64,000 nt of DNA from Marsupella aquatica (GCA_973895155.1 OZ316897.1:20587224-20651223); one strand, 5' to 3'. Shown: positions 3,403 through 41,663, counted from the stretch's first letter. Numbers and translations are program-made. Notes: generated from the letters alone by a model not told the origin.

Positions 3403-3586
3403 AGAATGCCAATCAGATGGGTGACAGCTACAGTTGTAGCTCGAGTGTTCGTTTCGAGCTCCGTCTTACAGTCCTGAATCCGATTGCAGATCTCAAATTC
3501 AGCACTCAGTTGAAGAAGCAATGTCTCCGGAATTTCGCAACCCAACGTGATTTGCCTTGACAGGCACTCCCGCACAGTGAGTTAGA

Positions 3587-11400: not shown

Positions 11401-13825
11401 ACAGTTGCAAGCTAGGGGAATTTCTAACGAAGGCCAAGAGCTCACTACAAACGGAAGATTCCTCAAACCGGGAAAACAGCGCTGAGAAGACTTACGGAAT
11501 TTTCAAAAAGAGCCAACTCTGACCAATGAATGAATGAATTTTCAAGAAACATCAAGAAGGCAAAGAAGCTTCCCAAAAAATCAGGGGGAAAATAAGAAGC
11601 GCAAAAGCTGACAGCAGAAGGGTAAGAGTTAGTGCTCACCGCCACCGACTTCTGTGGACAACTGGTTCAGATAAACTGCCCCTTCATTAGCCGCTAGTTT
11701 GCTTGGAAAGAGATCAGAGTCGAACGTCAGACCACCAATCTTGGTATCGGAGTCATGTGACGGCAAATTCTCCTTCCTAGGGGACTCGGCATCGTGCAAG
11801 GAGGTGACAGAGTTGTCCAAAGTGCCCATCTGGGATTGAAGCCTTGTGGCTTGGAGAGGGGACCTGTGTGGCAATTGTTCCAAGGCTGGAGCCGTGGATG
11901 CAGGACCAACACGGGAGCGAGGAGACTCTGAGAATGCGGGAGAGCTCCGAATGTGGGCTTTGGGGCTCCTACTCGAGTTCCACCCGGGAGGAGACATCAT
12001 GTCATCCGACGAAACACCGCCTAAGCTACTTCTTCTAAGAGGAGAGGATGTGCTTGGCTCTGGGGTCGCAATCATCCACGAGAGCAGTTCATCTCCATCG
12101 CTGGAACGTCTGCAGTTCTCCTCGGAGATGATCTCTTTCGCGGTCTTCAACGCTTCTTTGACAGCCAACCTGACATTGGACATCCGGTCGTGCTTACAGT
12201 TATCCAGAGCCTGCACGGTACTGCTCAGCTCCTCTGCCAGTGTGGCTCTATCCACCGTGGGGAGAACAGCTGTTAAGAGACGAGCCGCACAGGCCCTCTG
12301 CTGCCAAGATGCGGAGACCCCAGAGGACTTCAAAATCTCGACTCCAGACCTGAGAAGAGTGACACCATAGCTGGCAAGGAATGCGGAATTGGAGGCGGCT
12401 AAGGAGCTAGCCAGATGCATGTGGGCGACGGTCCTCGTGCCTTTCTCTGTCAAGGCTACGGTGGTCTTCAGGCAGAGGTCTTCGACGACGGAAGAGGGAG
12501 CAAATTTCCATTTCTCGCTCTCGACCAATGTTTGGAGGCATAGTGCCGCACCAGCAGCAAGCGGCTCTAGCTTCCCGGTGAGAACCTCCAGCAAGGGATT
12601 GCACAAATCCCTCAAGATGTCGGCGGCTTGGGCAGGCGATCCCTCGTCGATCGCATGTTTCGCAACGGCAGAGATTACTTTAGCACAAGCCTGTTGAAGT
12701 TGTGGTGAGCTGCCACTAGAAGAGAGGGTTTTGGTGACGGTGGTCATCACCCGGGGGATGTGTGGGATCATGAGCTTCCCATGGACGCGGGCCACGTCCT
12801 CGTAGAGAGAGATGGCATGTCTTCTTGAGGACTCCTTGGCCTCCGAAACCTGAAACGAAGAATCACTCGTCATGGTCAGAAGAAATTCAATAATTGAACA
12901 ACATATGGCTCCACTAGAGCCTCCGATATGTCGAACGTTCCATCCGCAATCTTTGACAGACTAGACAACCGAATCCAAAGTTCCCCACGTTTCGCCATCT
13001 CCAAGCGATAAAAGTCCTGTCCCACACGCCGACATACACAGTTTCCTTTCAATGAACAGAGTCTACAGTCCCTTCCATGAACAGAGTCTCCATTCACGTA
13101 AACCCTCGTGAGTCTCCTTTCCAATTTCGTCGAAGATAATGGGCCATAACCCCCTCGTCAGCCTGTCACCAAGATTCCTTCATTTGAATTTCTATGCTAC
13201 TGCCACGGATCAAAGCCGCCATTCCTCCCAAGCATGGTTTTTCGAAAACTCACAAGGACGGTGTCCGCCCGGTGACCCATGGGCCGGAGGAAGTTATGGG
13301 GTGTAATCCCCGAAGGCGAACATCCACAGTTGTGTGGAAAAGAAAACCCCAAGAGTCGCTCCGAATCTCCCCAGTATTCGTGCAGAGGGAATCAAATTCA
13401 AGGATTCGACCTTTTTGGAAAAGTTCAGAGCTTCAGGGCTGTACTTTAAACAAAGAAACGTTGAGCTTTGAATCTGTTTCTCAGAGCTTTGAATCTGTTT
13501 CTCAGAGCGCTCTGAAGAACATGTGAACGTTGCAAAAATGATCATGGATTACAAATCTGACACTTATTTATTCACACCTCGCTAAAGTGGAGTAGAATAG
13601 AGCATCATTGATTGCTATTGGTGTAGGAAAAGGGTGTACCTGGCCGATGAATCGGGGAATGGAGGCGGAATCCATGCCTTCAACACACTGCTTCAGAGAG
13701 TTCAGCGCATTTCGTCGCGTCTCGCCATCCCCCAGCTTAATGAGCGTTTGCTTCACCTGAGCAGAGGTCATGCACCTTGCTGATGCAGTCGATGATGAAC
13801 TTTTCTCTCGTGCGTCCTCCCTCAT
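8437..13825 (-). CDS. SINE1/SINE2-like (TORTIFOLIA1-related ARM/HEAT repeat) outer nuclear envelope KASH protein, ~953 aa; exons 13825-13640, 12849-11640, 10760-10276, 9417-8437
   Basis: N-terminal ARM region (IPRFIGQVSE...ISLYEDVARVHG...IPRVM.T..KTLSSS.SSP.LQQAC.KV), a long Ser/Pro-rich disordered middle, and a C-terminal hydrophobic segment followed by the plant KASH tail ...CLVPT*. Exons sum to 2862 nt, in frame. Confidence 0.85.
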
Positions 13826-18203: not shown

Positions 18204-19296
18204 ACAGGTGGACCTGGTTGTTGGTGAGATTAATCGACTGTGCATTCTCCAGCCTGCCCAGGTTAACCGTCTAAACCATAAAGTTCCTTACAAAACAGAC
18301 ATGAATACCACAGAGCTCAAGCGATAGACTAACACATACCGGTGGTGAGAGATGATAAAGGAATGGACAGAGATGCATAGCTGAGAGCGTGCTGAGACCC
18401 CTAAGTATAAACCCAAAGACAAAGGAAGGGAATAAAAATATAACAAAGGCTTCCTCTTGGGTGATGATGGTATATATCATCCTTCTTTGCTAGAGTGATG
18501 CATCAATTAGCATACATCGGGCCAAAAGCACAAGGCCTGTCAGCCAAAGGGTCGGTGAGCAGAAGGCCTTCACTTCCTTGGCTGCTGCTGCATGTCATGC
18601 CCCACGGGTTTCAGATAGGGACGAATGGAGCTAATATGCACAATGAGAAAATAAGTTGAAAGTTGTTGACGCACAGAGGAAGTGGGCTTCAACGCATACT
18701 CAAAACAGAGGTATGTTGTTGGCACTACCCGTCATGTTGAGATGAGAGACCACTCTCTGCAGTCAATGAGTCTTATCTAGGCAACGAGTTGGTAGTCCGT
18801 GGTGCTAGGTTCCAACCTGTGCACATTCCAACTTTTACATGGTTCCACTGGCCCGTCCACTGGCCATGAAGAAGCCCAAAACTTTTGCAGTCTTCTAAGT
18901 ATTTGGAGTGGAGCTCCCATTCCTAATCTTCCGGTGTCCATACGTAGGCAACTTGACACGTACTCGCTTGCATTGTCTTTCAACAATTGCATAAAGTTGG
19001 CACGAGGTCCAATCCCCTCTTTCCAAAGAGAGAATAAAGCCCTATCAGGGCTAGTAAGTAGACCCCACAGAGTGTTTGAATTAAAATGTGCTCTACTGTG
19101 ACGCATGTTGAAGCTATGTAGTTGACTTACACTGTTGTTTAATTGAAACTAGGTTCATTGTAATCCTATGTATGAGAGTGGCTTAGAAAGGATTTGTTAT
19201 AGGTACCAGGTCCAGTGGTCAAACAACAAAACACACATAGGCCAGATCAGCCTATTCATTAAAAGTGTATTTTCTTTTGTTCACAAATCAGTCCTG

Positions 19297-19376
19297 AAAT
19301 GTACACTTTTATGTCCCCAAATGTACACTTTATGAAGCCCAAATGTACACTTTTGATACCTAAATGTACACTTTAT
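19297..19376 (+). repeat. Left subterminal repeat array (aaatgtacacttt x4, ~21-22-bp period)
   Basis: Four copies directly inside the left TIR. Confidence 0.9.
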
Positions 19377-19616
19377 AGGCCAAATCTTATTAGTATTATA
19401 TTAATTATAATAGTATTATATTACTTATTAGTTCACAAAGAACCATGGGATAGAGATCATACTTGTAAAAACATTTCCGCACAAAGAAGCCCAGGCAAGG
19501 ACCATTGATTGATAATGTGTGAAAATAATTATATACAATTGTGTCCAAACTTACAATGAATATCTAGGGCTGGCACCCATTTTTACTATCTAATGGGCTT
19601 AACATGAGTCAGATCT

Positions 19617-20750
19617 CTAAACAAAGTGTTCCTTACAATATTTATTTGAGCACGTGCCTTTGTCTCCTTTACTATCTACCCTAATGTCACGGTTGCAACT
19701 CCCTTTATCTTCAGGGAGATGAAATTTGGTGGTGTTGTTCCTAACTGCTATAATCTCCCGCAAAAAGTGTCTAGGATTTTCTCTATACAGACCTGAATAT
19801 TCCCGTCCTACAAATGATCTAGCAAGTGAGGTGACAAGTGCATCGTCAAGTTCCACCTCAGGACGTAAGCTACATATACGGTGCTTCACAGCCCAAGGAA
19901 TCTCATTGCTATTGAGGTCCAGCACACTATGCCTATACTATGAGTTCCAAATTTTTGCTGCACATCTCTTACTAAGTTGATCATAAGTAATCTCATTTTT
20001 TGCCTTGTCTCTCTTAATGTGCAATAGAGACCACTTTGGAGAGTTTAGGAGAAGATAACAACGAATGTCACTTGCATGTGACAGTTTCTCAAGACATGGC
20101 CAAAGAATTGTTAGAAGAAAATTGTCTCCACAATTGGCATGCATGTAGGGCACTGGAAATAGTCCGGTCATGTCTGGGTTGGCAAATGCCTTCAAGGGGG
20201 AGTCATCCACAAGGAGTGTGTTGGTTTCATCATATAGATTTCCAAATGCACTCCATACCACCCGAAAATCTTTCAATAGCACATTTGCCTTTCCATTTGT
20301 AATGTCACGCCTTTGAATGCCTGTGTCAAAGGTTTCCACCTATGTGAATACAAACTTCAGTTTCAACCGCTCCTCAATTGTGAACATCATGTTCAACATT
20401 TTCACTGTTCGCGGCATCCCAGCACATGTCCAAATTGCAACGTCAAATCGGTCAAAAACCAACTTTAGAAACTCATGGAGCCCTAGCCTCTCTATATACA
20501 TGCGACTAGTTCCATTTGATCTATCCCAATGCACTCCACTTGAGGTGACAATATTCCTGGATGTGCCCTTGCTTTGGAATTCAATAGAATCCCAAAGTAT
20601 GTTATTAAGGTCCAAAATCAGCAACTTCCGCTTAAGGGGACCAGGTCTCGATTCTGCAAGTGCACCAAACACCATTCTCAGAGAAAAGACCAAAAGTGAA
20701 CTTTGGATTAGGATTGTCTTAGTCCAAAAATACAAGACAATGGCTGACAA
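19617..20750 (-). pseudogene. FCP1/NIF-type HAD phosphatase domain (transposon cargo), interrupted by in-frame stops
   Basis: RKLLILDLNNILWD...RLGLHEFLKLVFDRFDVAIWT...LKFVFT*...LLKDFRVVW...YDETNTLLVDDSPLKAFANP. ORFs 20340-20750, 19938-20339 and 19617-19925 are all in one frame. Confidence 0.8.
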
Positions 20751-20976
20751 AAAAGAAAATTAACCTACATACCGTTTTTAGAAGCCTCACAATGTGTAGA
20801 CGGATATGGAGACTTTAATTGGTGAGCGCATTCTGTGAGACCGAGAAGTATTTTAGATTGATATGAATAAATACAAAGTCAAAGGCTGAATTTCATTCCG
20901 AAATAAGAGATCCGTATTCATCAATAATCATGTCAGCACCAAGCTCCTGTTGGATTTCAAAATTGACATTTGAAGT

Positions 20977-22988
20977 TGTAATGCTGTACATTAGTTAGAA
21001 ATGATGGAAATTTTATAAATTTTAAACTTTTTCTAACTCAAGGTACAATCTAGTTACCTTTTGTAGCAATTTAGATCAACCGAACACTTTACCTAATGTT
21101 ATGCTTCATCGGAGGCTATTGCCTATATTGGACAAGGATCGCCAATATAAATCCTTGCTCTTTACATGCTACCAAGAAAGAAGACTGGACATCATTGGAG
21201 AAGCAATGCAGACTAGAAGATTCAACAACCGGACTCCAAAACATTTTTTCAACAAGAATGAGCTCTGTATACAATTATCACAATCAGCCGATCTCTGCTA
21301 TTTTAGTTAAATAGCTATCATGGTCAGAAAAGTCTCATACTTTTTCAGGAGGTAGTAGTTGCGTAGTAGAATCATCCCTGCAAGTTTCATCTCAAACCGA
21401 CATGTGGTTTGAAAGTTAGAATTAATTTAGTTTTGCTGTTTTTCGCATAGCCGCGACTTCGCCGACGCTTTGTGAAGCGTCCCTTGTACTTTTGGACGCT
21501 TTGAAAAGCGTCCACCCAAGACCACGACACTTTTTGAAGCGTCCACCACCCAACCAGTTGTACTCCGACGCTTTGCAATCCACATGAGGAGCGACGCTCA
21601 CAGAAGCATCTGCTACCCCGAATGCGACATCGACACTGCGACGCCCACTGAAGCGTCGCACCCGAAGACCAGAAGACGGACGCTGTGACCAAAACCTCAA
21701 AATTCAGCCGACGCTTTCTGAAGCGTCCACAAAAGTCCTTTGTAGTTTTGGACGCTTTCTGAAGCGTCCACTATGTTCCCGATACTTAGAAAAATTTTCA
21801 GTTTTCGCACTTTTATAACACCGCGCCACTTTTACCGATTTATTTGAGACACTTAGAGATATCAGAAAAGTCTGAAACTTTGTCAGCATAGAGATTATAT
21901 GTAGTAGAGTACCCTAGAAAAGTTTCAATTCATTCCGACTTTTAGTTTAGAAGTTAAAATTAGATTAAAATCACTGTTTATTAGTTTTACCGCAAACACC
22001 GACGCTTTGCAAAGCATCCGCTCAAACCTCGACGCTTTGAGAAGCGTCCCCTGCATTTTTGACACTTTCAGCAGTGTCCATTCACTTTTCAAGGATGACC
22101 GTCATTAAGTTTATTCAAGACCCTTTAGATATGAAAGGGCATATCCTTTCAGTATCTCAGTCTCCTTGGGTTCCTGCTAGCCTATATGAAGTAGAATTTG
22201 TGTCATTTTCAAGTGTGAAGAAATAAAGTAGTGCCTGTGGCATGTGCTGCAGTACTGGAATCACCTTTGCTTGCAAATGCAAAAGGAATTCTTCTCCCTT
22301 CCTTGGTCTGAATGATTGAGAGTTTAGATCATTGAAGTAAAATTACTTGTATGAAGTTGAATCTCAGAAGTATGAGGGAATAGATTCCTTAAGTGGTGAC
22401 AACCCATCTTCTTGAGTTCTTGATGCATAGTTTTTGGCGTGACATTGCTTGTGCATGGGATGCAAAGATTGTTACTCACCAATTACCTGTGACTTCAATT
22501 TGATCATGATGATGTTTATTATTCGTGACTCAGAGTATCGACTGGATATCGAAGTGATTGATTACTAGTTTCTTCTGAGTACCTTTGGAAGGAAAAGTTG
22601 AGACGTGTTGACGGCATTTTAGTAATCATCCTAGTACAGTAAACCATTCCAGAAATGTTCTTACGGATATACCACCAAAATCACATCAAATGAAGTATTG
22701 ATGAGAAGTTACCTTGGTGTTTTCCAGACTCCCTCATCATACCTCAAGATTTCATTGTGTTTTGTTATTTATTTCCATTTTATTAATTGCATTTACAATG
22801 TTAAGCAAACATTCAAATCTATGCCTTGCTGAGCAACCATAGTAAAAGGCTCAAACCTGTGTTTTTGTTACCTTAGTCATTCATAAGTGTTAAACGATAG
22901 AAAATCATTCCTTTCTTGTTCTTCCATGGGATCGAATACCGAGTTTTGGATATTAAATGTTGATTTATGTCCTTAGTGCAATACTACA
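20977..22988 (+). mobile_element. Solo LTR (~2.0 kb, probably Gypsy-type) nested inside the DNA transposon
   Basis: TG...CA termini (tgtaatg...tactaca), 5-bp TSD GAAGT at 20972-20976 and 22989-22993, no coding capacity, homologous to 34563-36320 in inverted orientation. Confidence 0.82.
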
Positions 22989-25356
22989 GAAGTACTTTGT
23001 TCTACCCAATAAGGTGAAGTCCAAACAGGAGTTATCAACCCCAATTCTCCACTCTAATACTCCTCCTTATTGAGAATTGAAGGAGCAGCATCCAATGATA
23101 TTTCTTGGCCTCGATTTGGCCCACTTTTCCAGATGTAACATCGTGCGTTGCATTCCAATGACCTCCATCCAGTTGATCCAACTCTATTTCCTTTCTTTTT
23201 TGAGAGCAAAAGGACAATAGGACTCCTCGAGTGTGAACGAACGAACACCAATTTGTCATCAGAAGCTGAAAAGAGTGTGTCAGGACAAGTTGAAGCACCT
23301 GCCTGGTTGTCAGCAGCCGTTGATGCATTTCCTCCTAGATTGATTGGAATGTCAGGCAATCCGCCAGTCTCCCCCTCGGTCTCCCCCCAAGTCAATTCTT
23401 TAGTTTCAGCTTCATTTGAATCTCCAAGCCTCGTTGCGCCTTCATTGATCAGATTGGTTGAAGAAAGATGATCAAATGTATCAACCCTTGCTCCTTCCAG
23501 TTGCTCCATCTGTCCTCCCGACGTTGATGGATTGGGATCATCCTTGTCCAAGTTATCATCAACTTGAACTTCATTGGGCCCCGGAGGGATGTCATCTAAA
23601 CCAGATGAACGGTTTGGTGCAAGTCCAATATCATCATCTACATCGTAAGGCTCACCTTGACCAACATGATCATCCAAATTCTTGACATATGCCTCCTCTG
23701 ATGCCTCTACGCCTTCAGCCACTTTGTCAGCAACATCTTCAGACTCAGAACCATCGGATTCAACAGCGACAGCTACAGCCACAATAGTGGTAGCCCATTG
23801 TCGAGAATTTTCAGCAAGTGATTCACAATGAGCTTTAAGTGAGGGAACTCTCTCGCAAAGGTAGGAAGCAAAAGCTTCCACAAAATGCCTCTCGGAGTGA
23901 GAGTCACAATAAACAAAGCATTCCCTATCGCAAAAAAATGATGTCTTCATGGCTTGGCCACTGGAGAAAAAATCTAGAACCAAATCTCCCGGTTCTGACA
24001 AGGATTCAATAATCCTTCGGATCATCCGCGTGGGTTTGGCATGAGGATTAACCCACCCTTCGCGACTGCCAACTGTCTCAAATCGAGGGGCCATATTCAT
24101 AATCTTGACGGCCTCTTCCGGGTCCAAAACCACTTTTAGGTCATCGTTTTGTGTCCCCTCATCTGATTCCTTCGCCTTCCCCTTTCCCTTGTCGATCTTG
24201 CATACTTCGTAATCAACATCCTTTGCAGTATACATGAATTTTGGCTTTGGATAGTTGGGCTTGAAAACTTCATTCCAATTGATGTCTTCATCTCGAGAAA
24301 TCCCCGCAAAGATAACTTCTTCAATCCCCCCACCCCAACATGAGTCATGAGGGTGCGGTTGATCATCTCGAGAATAACTCCCATACTCAATGTGAATGGT
24401 CAAAGCTTTCTCTTGTCCCAGTTTACGAAGGGCACCATGGACATTCAATGCAAGTTGTCCAGGATGAACTGTTATCGTCACAACAATTGTGGGATTTTGT
24501 GGAAGCTCCACAATGTATTCAAAGAGAACAAGAATCTCTGCTTTAGTCCATTGTTTTTGCGGAAGCCGGCTAAAATCAACAATGGCAAGAGGGCAGGTCG
24601 GAGGAGCTTCTTGCAATGACTCTGGATCAATGGTCTTCATGAGATTGTCGCTAAAAAATGTAGCCCATGGTAGGGTCCGAGAACATGATCCTCCGCCAAA
24701 TTTCTGGCAGTATATATCATCTAGGCGGAATACCAATGCCGTCGGCAAGATTTCGCTCTCCCGCGTATGATTTGGTTTTAAAAGGTTAGAAAGATAGACC
24801 TCGCCAGTGGCTCTTCGACACCTGCTGAACTCTGAATCAATTGCTAGTGTAGGAAGAACCTCCACTACTTTCCCCCAATTAGTATTTGCCGGGAAATTCA
24901 CCGCATCCTTGGTGCAATAGTAGTCTTCAATAAGGGACTTCAGTTTCCACACGATCTTCACATCTTTGGCCAACTCCTCTATAGATGGCATGTCTGATTT
25001 ATTAGAGGCATCTTTCTTTAGCAATACCTTTCCTGACTTCACCCGCGTCAGTATTCTTGTGATGTCTCGTTGTGAGATCAACTCACCATCAAAACAATGA
25101 AACATGGCAACAGTAATTGCTTTTTCAGACTTCTCATTTCCTTCTACCCCAGCTCCATCGGGAAGTTTCCCATCCAACCACAACTGGCATACCAAACTCC
25201 ATAACTCAAAAAGAGCATCGTCCGCAAACAGTAACCAGTAAACATTTCGACAATCTTTCCTTCCCATGGTCATTCTTGCAAGAGCCAACCAATCCTACAA
25301 TTGAAAAGGAAAGTCTGTTAGTTCTCCATAACTCAATTGTTTGATAGCACTCAGGT

Positions 25357-25670
25357 GCGGACTGAGACCATCCCAGTCCAACACAGAACTAGACAGTATC
25401 AGTGGAAATAGTCTATTGAATGTGCATGATTTAGTTTGGACTGGGACCATCCCAGTCCAGAACAAAACTAGACAGTATCAGTGGAAAAATAATCTATTGA
25501 ATGTGTATGAATCCATTTGGACTAGGACCATCCCAGTCCAACACCAAACTAGACGATATCAGTGGACAAAGATTCTACTGAATGTGCATGAATCCATTTG
25601 GACTGGGACCATCCCAGTCCAACGCAAAACTAGGCAATATCAGTGGAAATATTCTACTGAATGTGCATGA
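25357..25670. repeat. ~81-bp tandem repeat x4, each containing the palindrome ggactggga-cca-tcccagtcc; intronic
   Basis: Palindrome copies start at ~25358, 25438, 25519 and 25600, inside the predicted intron 25710-25295. Confidence 0.9.
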
Positions 25671-27492
25671 ATCTACGGTATTGTACCCATCAAGCAGTAA
25701 CACTTCGTACCTGAAATTTTTGATTGTCTTGAGCATTTGTTTTGTTGTCCCCATGTTTTGGCCGGCTAGGTTTTCCACATTCCACAAATTGTGGCCTAGC
25801 ATGAACGATTGTATCTTTGAAGCATGACTGAAACACCATCGTGCTATTGATCACATTAGATCGCATTGAATGCTCAACTAATATTGACGATGGTGTTCGA
25901 TGAGATAATATTCTTGACTTTCAAAATTCTAGCTTTTTCGCCAATGCTGTCAGCTTGGCATCCTTGTTTGCCCATTCTCAAATCCATCTGGTTGCTCTAG
26001 CCGAATGTTGACCGCTAATGGCAAGGAATTGAACCTCGCCCTTTTTCACGGCTGCTACAAAGTCCCTCCTATCTGATTCTGTGTTGTCATACTGCATTAG
26101 GTTTCTATGTTTTGTAGTGTAAGGAATCAAGTCTGCTATGTGTGGTTCATGCCCCGGATTTCTTATCATGGAATTGGCCACCTCCTTTACATGTTCTGCA
26201 TTCAACATTCTGTAACAGAGTCTTGCCGACGCAGGGAAAATACTGTCTACAGGAATAGAAAATATCGAATTGATCCCAAACGTATAATATTGCTCCATTT
26301 GTTGCAATACCTCATTACCTTCTAAGACCTTCTTCTCCTTAGGAGCGTCCAATTGCTCGTCCACATCTTGTGAATGCACTGTCAGGTTTTCTGTAGTGTC
26401 ATCCATGATGGCACTGTCAATTTTCTGTTTCTTCTTCTGTCTTGGTCTCTTTTCACTTGCACTCGGCTTCTCAACTAGACGTTTCTTCTCAACTGGCTTC
26501 TCAACTCGGCTTCTCATACTCGGCTTCTCAACTGGCTTCTCAACTCGGCTTCTCAACCGGAGGTTTCCTTTGGCTTTGTTTTCGTTTTCCCATTGCTCTT
26601 TGAGAGGTTGCTGCTGTAGTTCCCGTGGTCTCTGTTGTAGGTTCTGGAGCTTTCTCTGGCGCTTTCTCAGGCACAGGGTTTGTATTCACCACTGGAAGCT
26701 TTCTCGTCTTGGAGAAAGATTCTATCCATTGCTTTGCTTTGACTAAATCAAACTTGGGAGCAAATGCAACATCCTTATCAATTAAAACACCAGGCTCCTC
26801 CGACTCCGACGATAATAATCCAGCTTTCTCAAGTAAATTGCTTAACGTCCAGGTCGTTGCAAAAGAAAAATTGCCTTGGTGCTTCATCATGTTGAGTTTC
26901 AAATATTGAAACCCATACATAATGTCGACTGGAAGCATACCAGTTACCCCGACGACCAACTTCTTTGTGTCATAGGTCTTTGGAAAAAATCCCATTGACA
27001 AAATGCTCAATTCCCCACTTGTGTGCCATTCGACATTGAATTAAGAGGAGTATGCCTTTGACAGAAGGTTAACTTTAACCCAACAGGACTTATCGTGCAT
27101 CTCGAGAATGACCGTATTCATCCCTCTCCCTCCAATGCCAACAGAGACCACAGGTCCGCAAACAAAAGTCAGGCTATCATTTCCTCTGCACTTTAAGGTC
27201 AAAACAGGTTCAATCGTGGTTGATGGCACTTCATTATTAAGCGGGGTTCTTGAGAACTCAAGCCCCCATCGAAAGCGTGGGGATCTCTCATCTAGTAAGA
27301 ATCCGTCCAGGTAGTGGGTCGGTGCAATCGCGGGTTTGAAAACAACAAGATCGCTCCCTGCATCATAAATGTCATCCATGTTAGACTTAAAACCTTTCAA
27401 ACATTCGCATAACTCTTGTTGGATTAGGATGGTCCTAGTCCAACTTGAGATGGTTTTAGACTTGCTCCTACAATCGGGATTCAATCTCCTAG

Positions 27493-27731
27493 ATGGATTT
27501 GGATCATCCGAGTCCAACTTTGGATTGGGATAGTCCGAGTCCAACTTTGGATTGGGATCATCCGAGTCCAACTTTGGATTTGGATGGTCCGAGTCCAAGT
27601 TTGGATTGGGATGGTCCGAGTCCAACTTTGGATTGGTATCATCCGAGTCCAACTTTGGATTTGGATGGTCCGAGTCCAAGTTTGGATTGGGATGGTCCGA
27701 GTCCAACTTTGGACTCGGATGGTCCCAGTCC
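27493..27731. repeat. 27-bp tandem palindromic repeat (ttggattggga-tgg-tccgagtccaa-ct) ~9 copies
   Basis: Direct inspection; lies just downstream of the gtaagt donor of exon 1 of the minus-strand cargo gene. Confidence 0.92.
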
Positions 27732-27999
27732 TCTAAGACTTAGGGAGGATAGGTGATGGATACTTACTAGGGATTCGTGATTGAAATTGTCTAGAGTCTT
27801 CGAGTGCCAGTTCCACACTGTCGCTCATAGAGGAGAGGTCAAACTCCTTCGTTTCTTCCACATAGGACATCACAAGGACGCGATTCGCTTCCATCTTTCT
27901 AACACGTGGCAGAAAGACACATGGCGTCTTAGCAAGCGTCCAATCTAGGGCAATAAAAAAGAATGGAGGTGGAAGGTGGAAGGCGAAGGCGGGGAGGCA

Positions 28000-28225
28000 G
28001 AAAGAGAGCGGAGAGAGAGCGGAGAGCGGAGAGAGAGCGGAGAGAGAGCGGAGAGCGGAGAGAGAGCGAAGAGCAGAGAGCAAGGAGAGCGGAGAGAGAG
28101 TGGAGAGCGGAGAGAGAGCAGAGAGCGGAGAGAGAGCGGAGAGCAGAGAGCAAGGAGAGCGAGAGGAGAGCGAGAGAGTGAGGAGGAGAGCGAGAGGAGA
28201 GCGAGAGAGCGAGGAGTGAGAGAAT
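28000..28225. repeat. Purine-rich compound microsatellite (gagagagcg)n
   Basis: Near-pure A/G tract with gcggagagaga units, located upstream of the minus-strand cargo gene. Confidence 0.9.
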
Positions 28226-29069
28226 GAGAATGAGGTCCTGGCTGGACCTCTCCATCCCTTTACCCCCTCCTGCCTCACCCCGGTCTGTGTACGGCCAGTT
28301 GCCTCCTTCTACTGCGTACGGCCTGCTCTGGCGTACGGCCTGCTCCTACATCCGGCCCGTTGCCCTGACCTTGCATACGGCCTCCTTCCTTGATGTCTTG
28401 CCTACCTAACAGCCTTCCATGGTAGTCCCCGCGCAATTAGGCTCGTGAAGATAAGGTGTGTCCGCAAGCTAAGGTGAACACGTACTCAACCCTTATCTTC
28501 ACGCGATTTCCGGTTGAGCCGACTCGAGCGAAGGGTATAATTTGGGAGACGCCCACTTTGGAGCTCATTCTTGTTCTAGTTTCCCAAATCTAAGCTCCAT
28601 GTAATCCGGAGTGGAGTTTCTCTTAAAGTGTTATGTATTGAGCCACTTACCTTCATTGGGTTAGCTTAGCCAGCTTCTTGACTTTTGGAGTCCTCTTAGT
28701 TTATCTTTTACAGACATGTGTGGTTTAGGGTTCAGTTTGTTTTTTACTCCCAAGATTTAGTGGCATATAGCTTGTATTTCAAGGTTCTGGGAAGTTTTTA
28801 CCACTATTCAAACAACAATGTATACCCCTTGGATGTGATATTCATCTTCTACCAGATCTTAATACTAAGGTGAGTATAAGGTTAATGCATTCAAATTTAA
28901 GGTTCCATTATTTCATGAAACTGTATGTAGACATTAGGGTTTGCCTTAAGACCACGCAAACTTTAGGCTGCACCATATCTAGGGAGATCCGTAAAATACG
29001 GGGTCTTCCTAAATTTGGATTTTTCTTAGCTTAAGATGTTTGAAGTTTATCTCCTATTACATCATGGGT

Positions 29070-29770
29070 TGGTCTAGGATGGTCCTAGTCCAACTTTGCA
29101 TTGGGATCATCTGAGTCCAACTTTGGATTGGGATCATACGAGTCCAAGTTTGAACTTGGATGGTCCAAGTCCTAGTTTGGATTGGGATGGTCTGAGTCCA
29201 ACTTTGGATTACGATGGTCCGAGTCCAACTTTGGATTGGGATCATCCGAGTCCAAGTTTGGATTGGGATGGTCCGAGTCCTAGTTTGGACTTGGATGGTC
29301 TAAGTCCTAGTTTGGATTGGGATGGTCCGAGTCCAATTTTGGATTGGGATGGTCCGAGTCCAAGTTTAGACTTGGACGGTCCAAGTCCAAGTTTGGATTG
29401 GGATGGTCCGAGTCCAGGTTTGGACTCGGATGGTCCAAGTCCTAGTTTGGATTGGGATGGTCCGAGTCCTAGTTTGGATTGGGATGGTTCTAGTCCAACC
29501 TTGGACTGGGATGGTCCCAGTCCAAATCCAGAATCGAAGGATCGTAGTCCAAATCCAGACTTGAAGGATTGCAGTCCAAATCCGGACTTGGATGGTCCCG
29601 GTCCAAATCCGGACTCAGATGGTCCCTGGCCAAATCCAAAATCAAAGGATCGTAGTCCAAATCTAGACTCGGAGGATTGCAGTCCTAATCCAAACTTGGA
29701 TGGTCCCTGTCCACATCCGGACTTGGATGGTCCTAGTCCAAATCCAAAATTGGAGGATAGTAGTCTGAAT
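29070..29770. repeat. 27-bp tandem palindromic repeat ~25 copies, increasingly degenerate rightwards
   Basis: Same unit as 27493-27731; ends shortly before a strong acceptor (tttttttcag, 29810). Confidence 0.92.
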
Positions 29771-29811
29771 CAAAATTTGCATGAGTTTGGTTTTAATCCA
29801 TTTTTTTCAGT

Positions 29812-32800
29812 GTGCAGGAAAATAGGAAAAGGATGCCTCAAAGGTTTTCTAGGGGCGATGATGTTACCTTGACAATCGATGGTTACGACGTTGGAAATGG
29901 GACAGTTCAAAAGACAGATCCGCGAGAGAGTGTTCAAAATATTGTGCTGGGAGAGAATCGAATTGGGGTTCTCATTGAGAAGGCCTTTGGTGAGACTAGG
30001 AAGCTCCCTTTTCCAATGCCTAGGGCAAAAAATCTTCATGATGCCATTGACTCATGTGTCATTTGGGATATGTCATGTGCATATCGATCTACGGATCATA
30101 AGATTACTCAAAAATGCATCAGTATTGGTAGTTGTTCGACTCGAAAAGATAACAACATCCATAATTTTGCAAATGTAGAGGAGGATGCTTCGACCACCCT
30201 AAGGCCAGGCGATGAGGTTGAAATGTTTATCTCTGGCCATTGTGTGGCCTTTGGAGTTGTTTTCAAGACCGATCCAATGGAGAGATGTCATAACATATTA
30301 CTCGGTGAGTCTCGGGTTAGTGTAAAAGTCATAGATGTGATTCATGGTAGTAAGACTTTACCTTACGCACATGGTGGAGCTGCAACAATTGAAGAGGCAA
30401 AGGGCTCCTGGGTTCTATGGGATGTGGTTGACGTCCACAATAAAGTATGGAATGTTGATATTGATGGGAGCAACAAATCTTCCTCTAAGAAGTAGAAGGA
30501 CAAGGTAAATTTTGTTTCACAGTCTTGTTCGGCAAACACCACGGACACTAAGTGTGACTATTTTCATCGGGCAAACTGGATGTCAGAGTTGGTTGAACTC
30601 TACACTGGTTTGGATCGAACCAAAATGGTTGCCACTGGAACAATCACTGTCCCTCAAGTGACAGCAGCAGTTGATGATGAAATTCTTGGTGATGACCATG
30701 TTGGGATTGCTGTGAAAGATGTTGTGGCAGCACAATACTTTCCCAACATCCACAAGGGAATAGTGAGTTTGATTCGATGGCGGATTGATTCAACAAAACT
30801 AGTTGCAAATGGAAAATTTTTGTCAGACATTTTGGTGGAAGGTTTTGAGAGGATGGACTCATGGATAGGGATGAACTCAATGCGGATGTAAGTGATAGAG
30901 GAGTATTGTGTTCAAGGCCGTACAATTTCAACAAGAGGAATCAAGTAGATCCGAATGAAAAGAAGAGGAGGTTGTTGGAAACCAAGGCAATTTCAAAAAC
31001 AACAGAGGCGTCAATTGATGACGTGAAAAGAGAAAATTGTTGCAAGCAAAAATGTTGTCTCATTATGCCAAGGGAAAACATCGAGATTAGGATGGAATTT
31101 CATGGGATGTCAAGCGAGTAAAAAACGTCACACATTTTCAACCTCTTTCACTATAGAGAGGATGATGTTCGTGATAAGGGACACCATGTTCTTAAGGGTA
31201 TGGTCGTATGCAGACATGCATTTGCAATTATCCACGGTTTTAGCCACACCAAATATTATGATTACAAAAGGAGATATGTGGAGGGTTGCAAAATTGGGTT
31301 CCATGGCAATACGGGCTTGATGAAAGCAAGGGCAAATACCTTGCATGCACGAGTTCTGTTGGAGGCTTTTTTGACTCGAAATGCAGAGCCCATGCCTCAT
31401 ATGCCTTATGGAGGGGCACATGGGACAGACTCTACTGAGTACCGTCTTCCGACATGTTACAAGAAGCTAGAGATTCTGGAAGATGTGAGAACAAAGATGA
31501 AGGAAGAAGGGCTTCCTCCTGTCACAGAGAATACTCTCTACAAGATCTGGAGCAACTCATTTGCAAACTTCAGTTTTCATAAAGATGGTGCATTTGCCAA
31601 GTGTACTCTTTGTTGTGAATACAAAGACAGTTTGATGCGAGAAAGAAGGAAAAAAGAACGTGTTGAAATTGAAGAAAATCGAGCGCAACATCTTCGTGAG
31701 CAAATGTCACGTAGATATGTTTACTACGCTCATCGAGTGATGGCCAAACAACACCCAGGAGAATATCTTTGCATTATTCACAACAAGATGGATCAAGCAA
31801 AGACATGGATTCCAAAAATGGTTAGTACTCCTAAATCTCTTTCGGGTCATGGAATGCCGCTACCTATTGCTCTCACAGGGATATTGACCCACGGGACGGA
31901 TCTAGGAGTTTATGCACACTTTAGTGTCACTGGCCTTTGGCTAGGAGATGCCGATTTCACGGTGACATCCTTGGCTAAGTGTCTTCGAGACCTTGAAGAG
32001 TACAATGGAGACAAGATAGGTGACATGTTGGATGGCCTTCATTGGGAACCTCACAGACCTTTCTTTCAAGCCCTACTTGACTTTGAAGCATTTTTGACGG
32101 GTTATTTGGAACCAAAGAATATACCGGTGAATAGGTATATTGGTTTTGAAGATGGAGCTGAGAGTCGGACTGAGACCGTCCCCACCAACAAGATGAGGAC
32201 AAAGGAGCAGACATGCAAGGAGAGCAAGGCAGTCCATCGTTCAAGCCCTTGCCAAGGCACCTAACATTGCAGATGGATAATTTAGCAAAGGACAACAAAA
32301 ACCAGACTGTCATGGCATTTTGTAGCGAGCTTGTGAGTAGAGGAGTATTTGAAACTGTTCAAATGTCTTTTCTAATGGTTGGTCATACGCACGAAGATGT
32401 TGATGCACTCTTTTTGAAGGTATCATATCAAGTTCAACACAAAGAAGTTGCAACCCTCCTTGCTCTTATGGCAGAGGTATGGGAATGCGAGAGCATTCAT
32501 CCAGTTCCCAGATTGATACAAGAAGTTGCATCTTACAAAGAATATCTTCAAACTTTCAAGGTGAAAGATATTCAAGGTCACTCAAAACCCGTATCATTTC
32601 TTTTCTCTATGAGAGATAATGTACCAATATTTCAGTATAAGTCCCATGTAAAGCAAACTTGGGCTCCAGTTGGTGAAAGGTGCATTTGGGCAACAGATCT
32701 GACAACAAATTCTCTTCTTTTACCTAGTGGAGAGCCCTTAGCTAAATCCATTGGAGAGATACACAAAAAATCTGAAGAGATTATCCCATTTCTTAACAAG

Positions 32801-33589
32801 TACCTTGATTTTTTGAGAAGGAGTTGCACTGATGAGACATCTATAGCATATAAGGAAAGATTTCCTCTTGTGAAATATTGGGAGAGAATTGTGGAGTTGT
32901 TGACAAATGGGCTCACACTAGAAGGGGAGGGAAGTACTCAATTTCCCTTGAAAAACAGATTTTGGCCTAAGACTAACCACGGCACTGGTTACAAGGTCAA
33001 CCAACCGGAACAAAATGGTCCTCCAAGTGAAGATGAGGAGAATGCAGAGATAACGGCTCTTCCAAATGAGGTCTTGGAAGAGATGGAAGATCAAGCAACA
33101 CCATTTATTAGATCTCAAGCTGAGAGAGAACAAGGACGATGGATTCCTTTACAGGATATTTGTGAAGGAAACTTTGTATTTCTTCGACCCGAGGATGATT
33201 GGGAGAATAAAAATGGTGGAGGTCATTTCTGGTTGGTGAGAGCTTTGGGTTTGGTGGACCCAAAGCATGAAGTCCCAACTACATCTTCAACAAACCCTTC
33301 TCTGCCTCGACAGAACGCTCCAATGTTCCCAGTTGAATGGTGGAGGCCTAAACACTCTAAACTTGATGTGACTGAGAGTGCACGGTATCTAAAGTGTTTC
33401 ATGTCCACTAAGACATGGGAACGAGATCCGGGGTTTGGTGAGAATACTCAACATTGGCAGTATGCAAATTCTGCAATGTATGGTTTTAAATCTAGAATGA
33501 AAGAAGAAAACATGACGGGCAGAGGTTTGAAGATCCCTCGAAATGTTCTACAAACTGTCCAAAATTATCTTCAAAGGATGGACAAGTAG
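29812..33589 (+). pseudogene. Transposase: three Tnp1/En-Spm-like (DUF8039-type) repeats + Cys-rich region + Sola/DUF7869-like DDD catalytic core + C-terminal Tudor/PWWP-like region
   Basis: Repeats VA.G.V....P....H...LG...V.V.V.......LP.......I..A....V.W (two clear copies, third weaker); CCKQKCC; VCRHAF..IHG; FAKCTLC; IIHNKMDQAKT; LQMDN.AKDNKN..VMAF...LV.RG.F..V...FLMVGHTHEDVD. ORFs are joined by in-frame stops (30493, 31119) and frameshifts (~30870, ~32220). Confidence 0.82.
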
Positions 33590-33849
33590 ACTTAGTTATT
33601 AGAAGCTATAATAATTAAATAGATAGTTACTAGTTTTTATGTAACTAAGATAGTCACTCATTCAAACATAGTAATTTATGTACTAGTTATTTACTATTCT
33701 AATAGTTTTAATTTGATACTATGTCCTCATTTTCTAAACTTTTGATCATTATGAATTATGAATATGAATGTTTGCTTTTTTCTACATAATTAAAAATATT
33801 TTTCTATTCATTCCTTTCTTTTAAATGATTATAAGAAGAGTTGGTAGGC

Positions 33850-34152
33850 AAATGTACACTTTTTAGGCCAAATGTACACTTTGTTGCACTAAAAATTACA
33901 CTTTCTAGACCAAATACACTTAAATGTACACTTTTTAAGCCAAATGTATGCATTTTTCACTCAAATGTACATTTTCTAGGCCAAATGTACTCAAATGTAC
34001 ACTTTTAAAGCCAAATGTACCTATTTTGATGTTCAAATTTACACTTTTCATTGCCCAAATGTACACTCTTTTGGCCAATTGTACACTTTTCTATCTTCAA
34101 ATGTACACTTTTCCAAGCCCAAAAGTACACTTTTCATTGCTCAAATGTACAT
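33850..34152 (+). repeat. Right subterminal repeat array (aaatgtacacttt, ~13 copies)
   Basis: Same motif as 19297-19376, directly inside the right TIR. Confidence 0.9.
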
Positions 34153-34562
34153 AAATCAAATAATAATACACTTTTAATGAATAGGCTGATCCAGACTAAG
34201 GCCTTTGGAGCCTGCTTGCCCCAACATTGTCAATGTGGTATATTAAAAGCATGGTGGAAGTGCCTAGTATTGCTTGGGCCATGCCCACATAATAGGGTGC
34301 TACATGGTCACTTTCAAAGCATATGTGCAAAAACATCATTGTGCAAATAAAAAAATAGCAATTATAGTTGTTCTTAATTTCCACTCAAATCCAGTATGGA
34401 TGATGAGACCCAACTTAAGATAGAATTTGAGCTTGAACTATGCTGACTTCCATATGAAGCATTTCTCAACTACCAGCACATTAAGTGCATCTTTGCCAAC
34501 AACTGTTTAGGTCATAGGATGTCAAGCTGATACTCCATTGAAGACTTGCAACATTTTCTTAT

Positions 34563-36320
34563 TGTCATAAGCCGTAAGAACACAAAAGTAACCAAATATC
34601 TTTATAAACTCGGAATTCGATCCCTTTAGGAACAGAATTGGAATAGATTGAATGATATAGTAATTTTGAGAGGTTTAGAGTCTCTTACTCTATATAACTC
34701 AAATTTTCCTTATAGGAGAATTAAATAAACTAACAAAACACAAGCAAGGAAAACCTCCTGAATTAAGAATAAAGGTAAGTTTCAATTGAGTGAGATAATT
34801 ATCAATTTGATATTGCCACTCCTTTAAAAAGGACTATGGTCTTATTGTATACAAATGAAATCTCTTTAAACTCATCTGAACTCTCATTAAATCCATAACA
34901 ATACTGATTGAAATATTTATGCTCACCAAACCCAGAGTAATTTTTTGATTACAGGTACTAAGATATCCACTATTATGCCGTCAACATGAATTGATTATTA
35001 GCGATGCGCAATTTCAATCAATCACTAGTGAATATACCAGAGTACATGAATGGTATTAGCTAGTATAAAAATGGAATTTTTGCTTATCTCAATCCAACAT
35101 TGATTCTCAAATTGGCTAGCAAATCTCATCTGAGCAAGTCTAGCAGTGAATTCGACATGAATCTCAAAAGACTATGATTGTAATTCAGGCACAGAGGACA
35201 TCTTCTAAATTCACTCACACAACACATAACATATATTTTACTTCCATACAAGACTCTCTTATTACAATGGAAGGAGGGAACCTATCCAGAATTCTGATAT
35301 CTGAATAAAATTGTGCCCCCCTAAAATGAGTAAATCGTGAGGTTTTATAGGTAAAGGTTCTAGCTGAAAATGCATGACCTTTCAAACCTCAAATATCTAA
35401 AAGATAATCCTAGAAAAGATGGAAAAAGTATTTGAAAACGTAGTGGACGCTTCAGAAAGCGTCGATGTTTCTAGTAAAACTAATAAATAGTGATCTTAAT
35501 CTAATTTTAACTTCTAAACTAAAAGTTGGAATAAGTTGAAACTTTTCTAGGGTACTCTACTACATATAATCTCTATGCTGGCAAAGTTTTAGACTTTTCT
35601 GAGATCTCTAAGTGCCTCAAATAAATCGGTAAAAGTGGCGTGTTATAAAAGTGCGAAAACTGAAAATATTTCTAAGTGTCGGGAACATAGTGGACGCTTC
35701 AAAAAGCGTCCAAAACTACAAAGGACTTTTGTGGACGCTTTAGAGAGCGTCGGCTGGATTTTGAGGTTTCAGTCGTAGCGTCCGGCTTCTGGTCTTCGGG
35801 CGGGACGCTTCCGTGGGCGTCGTAGTGTCGATATCGCCTTTGGGGTAGCGGACGCCTCAGAAAGCGTCCTCACTTAGCGGCTGTATTTCAAAGCGTCGCT
35901 ACCTTCACTCTTCCGGGTCCGTATAGTTACTTCTTCACCAACGGACGCTTCAGAAAGCGTCGTGGATTCCGTGGTATCGGTGACGGACGCTTCAAAATTT
36001 GGTGTCGCATCTGGCTGGCTGGCGTCACATATGGACACCTCAGCTGTGTTGGGCTTTCTTTCTCTTTGGACTGGGGACGCTTCAGAAATTGTCCGTGCAT
36101 GGAATATGGACACCTGAATTAAGCGTCCTATTGGAGTGGACGTTTCAGAAAGCGTCGTCTTTTGCCCAAAAAGGTTTGAAAAATTATGAATTTGCCCTTA
36201 TTGACATATTTCAACAAAAGTCCCCTTTCTACACTTACTTAGTATTCCAAAAGAAACCCACCATGGGCAGGCAAGACAAGCATGGATAGAGATGATGATT
36301 TGCAACCTCGAGGGCTAGCA
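34563..36320 (-). mobile_element. Solo LTR (~1.76 kb), related to 20977-22988
   Basis: tgtcataag...gctagca termini, TSD CTTAT at 34558-34562 and 36321-36325. 35474-35870 is a close reverse complement of ~21590-21990, and the terminal ggatcgaat.ccgagttt...aca motif is shared. Confidence 0.78.
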
Positions 36321-40502: not shown

Positions 40503-41663
40503 TTACTTTTGTTCAATGTCGTGTTTCATACCGCTTTTTGTGGGGTAATACAACTTGAACTCAGCCTTCGGTAGATGAGCATAAGTCAGGACAGAAAAGA
40601 AGCGATACTCGTTAACAGACATTGTGAAACGCAGGGAGCCATTGTCCGGAACGACATAACCAGCAGCTTCAGAGGCTCGACGTCCATTACCTTCGTCTGA
40701 CTCGCCTTCCAACATTAGCCATGCTTCTTCATAGCCTTTTTGGGATTCAACCGTTACAAGACAGGAATCATTGTCACTGTCAAGATCGGCCGCGTCTATG
40801 AGTTTGCGGACCATGCCATTTTCTATTTCTGCCGGGGCGGGGGTGGCCGGATTGACATATTCCTGATCTCTGACCACTTTTTCACCAACCGACCTCACCT
40901 CCAGTTTAATCTGCTCCATCATCAGTGTACTCCTTCTGTTGTACTCAGATTGATCCTGAGACAGCTGCTGTTGCTGAACGACAACCATGCTTACATTCGA
41001 ATTGACCGACTCCATAGCTCTAGGGATTTCAGCGACTTGATTATGTATTTCAGCGACACGATCATGTGTTTCAACGCTGATTTTATAGGTTCTTACACCA
41101 AGAGCTTTCATCAAGTCGCCCAAGCTCTTTTCAAGCTCAGCGCGCAACTGCTCCACCTTCTTTTTCTGCTTGGTTGCGGATCCCTGTTGGTGCAATACGT
41201 TCTTGACGACTTCCCGAGCCCTATAACTCCCCTCTCTTTGCTTGTCGTCCAGTTGATACTTTTTCACTTTTGAATCCACCTCAATCAGCGTCGACTGTAA
41301 TTCTTTTAGGACAGATTCCAAGAAAGGTCGGTCAATCTGGTTTAGGGAAATCCTCCCCTCTAAACCGTTCACAAATTCAGTTCTGACAACCTCTATCGCA
41401 GAACTTGTGTCCACCTGCATCGGGGAAGCTGTGTCAATCTCGATCGGGGAAGCTGCGCCAACCTCCCTGGAATACGTTGGGTCAACTTCCTTCAGTAAAG
41501 TCTCCACAAATTCAACTTGTGTGATGAGGTCTTTAGTCTTCTGTGGTGCATTTTTCAGGTCGTCCTTAGCTCGCAGAATCGCCCTGACTGTTAAAAAAAT
41601 ACACTTGCCCAATTGCTCAAGTAATTGAGCTCCTGCCGCCGCCTCGCCTAGTCCCGTCGCCAT
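40503..41663 (-). CDS. Protein with N-terminal helical-bundle domain (HeLo-like/SesA/MLKL-4HB-like) + coiled coil + uncharacterised C-terminal domain; further 3' exons likely (to ~39900)
   Basis: Long uninterrupted ORF; amphipathic N-terminus MATGLGEAAAGAQLLEQLGKCIFLTVRAILRAKDDLKNAPQKTKDLITQVEFVETLLKEV; ORF ends at a gtaagc donor (40506). Downstream exon structure is unresolved. Confidence 0.6.
   Translation of the reverse strand: MATGLGEAAAGAQLLEQLGKCIFLTVRAILRAKDDLKNAPQKTKDLITQVEFVETLLKEVDPTYSREVGAASPIEIDTASPMQVDTSSAIEVVRTEFVNGLEGRISLNQIDRPFLESVLKELQSTLIEVDSKVKKYQLDDKQREGSYRAREVVKNVLHQQGSATKQKKKVEQLRAELEKSLGDLMKALGVRTYKISVETHDRVAEIHNQVAEIPRAMESVNSNVSMVVVQQQQLSQDQSEYNRRSTLMMEQIKLEVRSVGEKVVRDQEYVNPATPAPAEIENGMVRKLIDAADLDSDNDSCLVTVESQKGYEEAWLMLEGESDEGNGRRASEAAGYVVPDNGSLRFTMSVNEYRFFSVLTYAHLPKAEFKLYYPTKSGMKHDIEQK

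Follow-up and report, generated by a model that had tools for sequence, protein, structure and literature searches.

What kind of element lies at 19246-34190 in the window, a 64,000-nucleotide stretch of the genome of the liverwort Marsupella aquatica (GCA_973895155.1 OZ316897.1:20587224-20651223, numbered from its first letter), and what might its extra genes do? The original prediction was a giant Sola-like DNA transposon with perfect terminal inverted repeats (TIRs), carrying a transposase, a ParB-like and DNA-methyltransferase-like protein and an FCP1-like phosphatase. We found that the locus is one copy, dead and decayed on its own, of a multi-copy, ~12.9-kb, three-gene family. Our preferred reading, to which we give a probability of about 0.6, is a dead cut-and-paste transposon, likely of the Sola1 group, whose accessory protein likely binds the element's own palindromes and regulates or shields both promoters without methylation.

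Limits and copy number of the element

The predicted 26-bp TIRs were perfect (Table 1); each of 20 block-shuffled windows had as its longest such repeat one of 14-17 bp. Contigs of six out of eight public runs were compared with 18300-25300 and 31071-34970 of the window (four runs per end). The left flank was near single-copy depth and the bin with the left TIR had a depth of 380-120,000 in all four runs, rising from 178 to 120,102 (X2), 0.35 to 17,752 (X1), 1.3 to 1,397 (X5) and 0 to 380 (X7). At the right end depth fell from 105,574 to 308 (X2), 2,267 to 33 (X3), 175 to 3.7 (X5) and 417 to 4.1 (X6); the four drops lay exactly at 34191, three of them amounting to 69- to 340-fold and the other to 47-fold. 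Because depth stepped at both TIRs, it is there that the repeat family truly ends on either side, with the compared cargo lying inside it, and the cargo genes belong to the transposon family rather than to the host, as had been proposed. All interior bins over the NIF (FCP1-like) and methylase-like genes were high in both deeply covered runs, and so were those over the transposase. In X3, interior depth was 488-3,659 against 21 for a single-copy contig, a ratio that suggests tens of copies or more, summed contig depth not being a copy number. X2 and X3 showed the junctions with 0 differences; they are possibly the source material and hence not independent.

Every open reading frame (ORF) of this copy was broken, a point on which the original prediction was silent. 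The stops at 19940 and 31119 are replaced by sense codons in practically all of the remaining contig depth (that at 19940 in four of four runs); being private to this copy, they indicate that it decayed independently. The predicted nested solo long terminal repeat (LTR) was also present; it splits the 3′ end of the accessory ORF, both halves of which align with the uninterrupted C-terminus of a homologue in Calypogeia, and in three of four runs there were contigs from which precisely this insert is missing (joint 20971>22989, five shared letters).

The predicted CCAG flanks both TIRs, and its 4-bp length shares its fit with a shorter duplication: TIR pairing continues one base outward, and this copy can equally be described as having 27-bp TIRs (GATC...GATC) beside a 2-bp duplication, CA. 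Both arrangements predict an identical empty site. The match of one X6 contig ends at 34190 with three unaligned letters beyond, which favours the 26-bp end. Paired ends in the window and in two metagenome loci, L033 (TATA) and L055 (AAAA), all fit 4 bp, and those of L033 and L055 fit 2 bp too. A contig of X2 with a depth of 55.5 and 19 differences aligns to the right flank from exactly 34191, after 186 unread letters, and may represent an empty paralogous site.

The transposase

The transposase matched Pfam DUF7869 (E 1e-36). Sixteen long homologues of 845-1,334 amino acids with at most 52% identity were found, eight of them with both DUF8039 and DUF7869; those named come from Riccia sorocarpa and Physcomitrium, and the Physcomitrium proteins P0013 and P0022 have the same domain order. 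The motifs HDKMD, [ML]DNSxKDNKN and GHTHED[VI]D were conserved in all ten aligned homologues (the first being HDAMD in one), and from their pattern we take these three acidic motifs to be the catalytic triad. The copy in the window reads HNKMDQ at 31779, with Asn replacing the conserved Asp, LQMDNxxKDNKN at 32267 and GHTHEDVD at 32381, and is further interrupted by stops at 30493 and 31119 and by two frameshifts. The three motifs and DUF7869 bear out the predicted Sola-type DDD transposase. A search of sequences in the PDB with the transposase profile gave no match, and no relatives were found in viral contigs.

A review of plant transposable elements gives Sola a DDD transposase, a 4-bp target-site duplication (TSD) and TIRs of 11-1124 bp, a range that includes 26 bp; it also records Sola in moss and some elements >15 kb (PMC10741241). 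Physcomitrella Sola1 is listed elsewhere (PMC9033089), and together with the Physcomitrium homology this points, suggestively only, to Sola1. Two other placements were set aside. Two dictyostelid Sola2 proteins (PMC3627910) and the transposase alignment share the order of a CxxC/H region and three acidic motifs, with different motif sequences; the Sola2 motifs DFKEN, DxAxHFKS and YHGKSxxD were absent in a comparison by eye. The termini here read ATCAG/GATCA, and no CACTA transposase family was found in the Pfam scans. Elements of the CACTA/EnSpm (CMC) type are defined by CAC termini and CACTA transposase Pfam domains.

The accessory protein is predicted to combine ParB-like and methylase-like folds

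The accessory gene runs from 27379 to 20893 (minus strand) in two exons, and homologues map along it. The residues on the two sides of its intron, KFQ and DW, match RFQ and DW of the Calypogeia fissa homologue P0001. Exon 1 carries a stop at 27041-27043, a frameshift in the linker and stops at 25980 and 25923; exon 2, with AIVDFSR at the motif IV position and VLDFFSSG as motif I, has an in-frame stop at 23054-23056.

By a word-index search a single relative was obtained, P0001, with 37% identity over 746 amino acids (the whole exon), and the same search with the accessory-protein alignment returned only the alignment's own first sequence. An exhaustive search gave 116 relatives; among 21 that were looked up, nine were from R. 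sorocarpa, two from Calypogeia fissa and none from Physcomitrium. Judged by its nearest named relatives, the host would be a liverwort or a plant near them. Several relatives hold ParB-like and methylase-like parts in one chain.

The Pfam match to N6_N4_Mtase (E 7.6e-6) was slightly below the curated cut-off, and a profile of the accessory protein matched M.RsrI with E 5.7e-9. The structural model of homologue P0144 (mean pLDDT, the predicted local distance difference test score, 76) aligned with CcrM over 224 residues (Z 17.8, root-mean-square deviation 3.6) and also matched M.RsrI (E 3e-6), M.PvuII and the bdelloid N4CMT, with 8-15% identity to known beta-class methyltransferases in structural alignments. 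The predicted fold is that of a permuted beta-class N4/N6 methyltransferase, with motif IV before motif I.

ParB gave no match in Pfam or NCBIfam scans. In the model of homologue P0116, which is 53% identical to the ParB exon of the window, residues ~313-464 matched ParB, Noc, KorB, PadC and sulfiredoxin (Foldseek ParB 7bnr, E 8.4e-4; PadC, Z 8.1, root-mean-square deviation 3.3, 97 aligned; KorB, Z 7.8), and the top eight of 48,161 chains were all of ParB/Srx type as judged by chain names. These predicted ParB-fold matches are modest but consistent. Thus models of homologues matched both folds of the ParB-like and methyltransferase-like protein that had been predicted. The N-terminal domain gave no fold match (low pLDDT, best Z 4.7). 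In the ESM Atlas the ParB part lay near fungal DUF3723 (0.95) and the methylase part near streptophyte clusters (0.88), which are leads only. The succession of ParB domain, helical region and beta-class methyltransferase resembles, in the models, that of phage ParB-methylase fusions. A chlorophyte family with Dam and ParB-HTH (helix-turn-helix) parts (group 2, PMC4738411) was set aside, the accessory fold here being of the beta class.

As a separate observation, the ParB-like part (residues 325-505 of P0116, 25711-26406 of the window) resembles DUF3723, which is mentioned in many papers on Starships, a hint that DUF3723 may also be ParB-like mobile-element cargo.

Apparently remodelled active sites

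The catalytic motif [DNS]PP[YFW] was present in none of 118 accessory-protein relatives, a loss that the original prediction, which treated the methylase as an enzyme, had overlooked. Most of 30 aligned rows have D(F/L)x(R/H) at the motif IV position, and an acidic residue follows the next strand in only 11 of 26. Because the DPPY-type motif is absent from all 118 relatives, the methylase-like protein is probably a pseudo-enzyme.

ParB/Srx proteins have a nucleotide-binding motif of GxxR type and an HTH that binds parS. The corresponding motif here was SG[QA]HS in eight of nine rows and in none was His followed by Arg; helices follow the ParB domain in the P0144 model. The FCP1/NIF-like gene lies directly downstream of the accessory gene on the same strand, and Pfam NIF was detected above cut-off in two halves (E 7e-6 and 9e-7). 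Phosphatases of the FCP1/SCP (NIF) group, which belong to the haloacid dehalogenase (HAD) superfamily, have the catalytic motif DxDx(T/V); this dead copy has DLNNIL as motif I and lacks the second Asp. All three domains, ParB, methylase and NIF, look like remodelled or pseudo-enzymes as judged from their residues.

Palindrome arrays

Arrays of a 27-bp palindrome, which had escaped the original prediction, were found upstream of both divergent start codons, with four more units in the accessory intron and single palindromes at 20703 and 23527 in coding or intergenic parts. The half-site TTGGAYTNGGA occurs 52 times inside the element and once in the other 49 kb of the window. The arrays were also considered as 9-residue protein repeats; this was ruled out, since the homologous proteins begin downstream of them, and the arrays are therefore non-coding. 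Of the two divergently transcribed units that had been predicted, the divergence stands, by ORF orientation only, and the count does not, there being three genes.

A second motif, AAATGTACACTTT-like with a palindromic TGTACA core, forms the predicted subterminal arrays: allowing at most two mismatches, four copies were found at 19297-19362 and ten at 33850-34121, in the same orientation at both ends, with one more plus-strand match in mid-element and one outside the element. These arrays are likely, putative transposase-binding sites.

Table 1. Features of the element (positions in the window)
Feature	Position	Strand	Remarks
Left TSD, CCAG	19242..19245	+	Alternatively CA followed by the initial base of a 27-bp TIR
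Left TIR, 26 bp, perfect	19246..19271	+	Depth step in the bin starting 19236, 4/4 runs
Left subterminal array	19297..19374		4 AAATGTACACTTT-like copies, ~22-bp spacing
FCP1/NIF-like HAD phosphatase gene	19617..20675	-	Stops at 20342 and 19940; start codon inferred
3′ tail of ParB-methylase-like ORF, severed by solo LTR	20893..20976	-	Ends ...DEYGSLISE*, like the P0001 C-terminus
Nested solo LTR, 2,012 bp, TGTA...TACA, GAAGT duplication	20977..22988		Absent from other copies
Exon 2 of ParB-methylase-like gene	22989..25294	-	Helical region, predicted beta-class amino-methyltransferase fold, acidic linker, small C-terminal domain
Intron, GT-AG, phase 0	25295..25710	-	Four ~81-bp repeats, each with palindromic motif
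Exon 1 of ParB-methylase-like gene	25711..27379	-	N-terminal domain, low-complexity linker, ParB/Srx-like domain; start codon inferred
ParB/Srx-like domain	25711-26406	-	AISGQHS motif
N-terminal domain of exon 1	26708-27343	-	
Array A, 10 units of 27-bp palindrome TTGGAYTNGGA-N3-TCCNAGTCCAA	27419..27733		Immediately upstream of ParB-methylase start
GA-rich short tandem repeat	27976..28230		Divergent intergenic region
Array B, 20 units of 27-bp palindrome within mismatch limit	29069..29741		Immediately upstream of transposase start
Transposase	29833..33589	+	DUF8039-like repeats, CxxC/H region, DDD-type core, C-terminal domain
N-terminal DUF8039-like repeats of transposase	29845-30843	+	
Right subterminal array	33850..34155		At least 10 AAATGTACACTTT-like copies
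Right TIR, 26 bp	34165..34190	-	Depth drop at 34191, 4/4 runs
Right TSD, CCAG	34191..34194	+	

Related loci

In R. sorocarpa one gene model, R1sor_016354, contains methylase-like and NIF domains, and the methylase-like R1sor_002462 lies five locus tags from the transposase R1sor_002457, the two contigs being equal in length (chance ~0.02 for 6 × 9 tags). Related transposases were also found in 80 metagenome loci, 66 of them distinct and most short, distant or decayed. One of these, L006/7/8, has tandem NIF-like copies on the minus strand, a transposase on the plus strand and palindrome arrays within a 30-bp inverted repeat.

Some further observations were made on these loci. The L006 element (1205-12485, in an AT-rich host) has TAACACATATTTAATT termini, TTGGTGGCCACCAA palindrome arrays and tandem NIF-like remnants, the same design with a different motif. 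Ends of the TAACACATATTTAATT type also occur in L017, L020, L023, L033, L043, L049, L060 and others, and L006 and L033 are apparently one insertion (87% identity). In L003 (50-2977) a distant transposase has CCACGGGTGAACACCCGTGG palindrome arrays on both sides, which suggests that such arrays are a common trait of the transposase clade.

Proposed mechanism and alternatives

In the proposed mechanism the transposase, with its DUF7869 DDD core, would bind the TIRs and the TGTACA subterminal arrays, excise the element and make a 4-bp duplication. The accessory protein, in view of its replaced DPPY-type motif and SGQHS, would be a DNA-binding pseudo-enzyme. By analogy with parS and with the VANDAL/VANC system of eudicot Mutator elements, a ParB-type dimer might occupy the 27-bp palindromes that precede both genes and recur within the intron of the accessory gene; so bound, it could keep both genes open or tune them, with the methylase fold serving as a DNA- or base-binding module and not as a writer. 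The FCP1-like protein might act on phosphorylation of the C-terminal domain (CTD) of RNA polymerase II, or be a CTD-binding decoy, in either case aiding transcription. This is the weakest step, and the role of the phosphatase is the least constrained part of the proposal. Self-regulation or anti-silencing would be the function suggested by analogy.

Several points weigh against this reading. Positions 25301-31070, with the ParB exon, the arrays and part of DUF8039, lay outside the contig comparison; the contigs are short, none of them reaches across the element, and a second complete copy was not among them, and we infer linkage of all three genes in other copies from the shared boundaries. 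Only one of six Riccia transposase tags is near any of nine known methylase-like tags, and in the metagenome transposase loci no ParB or methylase remnants were detected (80 loci, 66 distinct) and NIF in only one of the 66. The duplication length is ambiguous, 4 or 2 bp, and membership of the Sola1 group is probable from DDD motifs, TIRs and homology rather than from a reference tree. The ParB Z of 8.1 falls in a range that the tool calls middling. Finally, the Asp of motif IV was kept in 29 of 30 rows and a DFFSGG-like motif I was well conserved in most of 29, both of which suggest some retained chemistry.

A broader version of the proposal, which we regard as rather unlikely, is a phage-derived self-recognition system of the parS/ParB kind in liverwort Sola elements, in which ParB would load on the arrays, the D-x-x-R fold would read, block or write a mark, and the FCP1-like protein would tune RNA polymerase II.

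It is rather unlikely that the accessory protein is an active amino-methyltransferase whose remodelled D-x-x-R site writes N4-methylcytosine (4mC), N6-methyladenine or another mark on the palindromes. The whole beta-class fold is predicted with high confidence, the motif IV Asp and motif I are kept at 20-50% identity, and 4mC exists in a liverwort, where it is attributed to Marchantia DN4MT1; however, that enzyme keeps the canonical TSPPY, whereas the Pro-Pro-aromatic part is missing in 118 of 118 relatives here and the acidic residue after the next strand in most rows. Inactive methylase domains borne by transposons are known, for example in DIRS1 (PMC4738411).

Improbable, in our judgement, is that the extra genes are roleless passengers, captured as in Pack-MULEs, and the palindromes transposase-binding sites or a selfish minisatellite. 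Most distant transposase loci show no such cargo, the palindrome also occurs singly in coding and intergenic parts, and the arrays have spread by tandem amplification. Against this, the accessory protein is conserved over its full length between liverwort lineages, with a shared intron position; its gene is multi-copy in Riccia and keeps its order relative to NIF; the protein resembles phage rather than plant proteins; and the layout of Sola with ParB-methylase recurs in a brown alga (PMC12477816).

Least probable of all is that the element has 27-bp TIRs and a 2-bp duplication and belongs, instead of to Sola, to an EnSpm/CMC-like or an unclassified DDE lineage: the 27-bp TIR with CA and the TATA of L033 would fit, subterminal arrays and DUF8039 are reminiscent of CACTA elements, and giant Plavaka (EnSpm) elements bear similar accessory genes (bioRxiv 10.1101/2025.02.11.637652), but only DUF7869 and no CACTA family was found in Pfam, the termini are not CAC, the X6 contig favours the 26-bp end and all paired ends seen fit 4 bp.

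Comparison with known elements

The original prediction knew of no described transposon superfamily in plants with this gene set; a Sola element with a divergent ParB and N4/N6 methylase gene has been published for the brown alga Ectocarpus. Sola1-1_Ec32 (21.5 kb, 4-bp TSD) has a gene for a 1,104-amino-acid protein with ParB and N4/N6 methyltransferase parts opposite its transposase, and the proposal there is that this protein binds the element encoding it and modifies its sequence (PMC12477816). Sola1-1_Ec32 shares with the liverwort family the giant size, the opposite-strand gene, nested insertions and, on the 26-bp TIR reading of the liverwort copy, the 4-bp TSD. It differs in its host, a 282-bp imperfect TIR and AACCG termini, and the accessible text mentions neither a phosphatase nor palindrome arrays. 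By prediction the algal methylase is productive; the liverwort lineage, in contrast, lacks the catalytic motif; the accessory proteins are likened here by domain content.

Plavaka (EnSpm) elements of 17-19 kb in the red alga Bostrychia carry accessory genes (PAG1-3) that include a PF01555 methylase gene and a ParB gene (bioRxiv 10.1101/2025.02.11.637652). In common with the liverwort element they have methylase and ParB genes, the latter next to tandem arrays of inverted repeats, and the best match of their ParB, 7BNR, is also the top Foldseek match of the liverwort ParB part. Unlike it, they occur in red algae, have a transposase of another superfamily and keep the two functions in separate genes, with a 2OG oxygenase as the fusion partner of ParB and SET as that of the methylase. 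Phage fusions of ParB and N6_N4 methylase, CcrM, M.RsrI, the bdelloid N4CMT and Marchantia DN4MT1 have the same domain order or fold (PMC4738411), but these are active and have DPPY or SPPY motifs.

Closer to the host, Physcomitrium patens Sola1 is a bryophyte Sola, and the Physcomitrium transposases P0013 and P0022 are homologous to that of the window. Bao and colleagues are reported to have described, in 2009, moss Sola1 elements with extra genes including a NIF-like phosphatase; if so, the phosphatase cargo is not new either. VANDAL/VANC shares the working model of a transposon-encoded protein that binds short repeated motifs in the non-coding parts of its own element, where it reportedly counters silencing. 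The transposase and the protein are unrelated, and the function of VANC is demonstrated whereas the role of the liverwort protein is proposed by analogy.

No such element was described in land plants in the literature searched, outside which lay most subscription papers, Repbase and bioRxiv supplements. We found no account there of the family in a land plant, of its altered catalytic site or of its phosphatase; the element, unusual and well delimited, is a variation on a known design rather than a new superfamily.

Neighbouring features

The solo LTR has an internal ~190-bp duplication and palindromic motif arrays of its own. About 1.2 kb to the right of the element, 35442-35898 repeats the middle part of the LTR in inverse orientation with 88% identity and is probably of the same LTR family; related motifs (GACGCTT...AGCGTC) extend to ~36160.

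Host genes to the left of the element encode a POT/PTR2 transporter (950-1582, minus strand) and a TORTIFOLIA1-like protein (8440-12960, minus strand). To the right lie a gene for a TPR-CHAT protein (caspase-like protease), preceded by a partial duplicate of itself (43379-44374 and 44900-48562, plus strand; 73% over ~770 bp), and, beside it, a divergent 410-amino-acid ORF without a Pfam match (40506-41735, minus strand); this region looks like an immunity-type locus. A cytochrome-b5-fused front-end fatty-acid desaturase is encoded at 61491-63023 (minus strand) and presumably resembles a liverwort delta-6 desaturase.

Implications

Transposon proteins with a proven ability to recognise and shield the element encoding them are known from only one plant family (bioRxiv 10.1101/2025.02.11.637652), and self-recognition by the ParB-methylase genes of algal giant transposons has been proposed in print (PMC12477816, bioRxiv 10.1101/2025.02.11.637652). 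With the family described here the ParB-methylase design reaches liverworts, the group to which the model plant Marchantia belongs. The absence of the catalytic motif throughout the family suggests that self-methylation, the interpretation now prevailing, may not hold here. In Riccia and Calypogeia, genes annotated as coding for DNA methylase or FCP1 proteins probably belong to transposons. The 27-bp palindrome confined to the element is a precise candidate binding site, and relatives have apparently open ORFs, so that the hypothesis is directly testable. The broader version of the proposal, if true, would give land plants, besides VANDAL/VANC, a second sequence-specific system against silencing, evolved independently and sharing its design with the giant transposons of algae.

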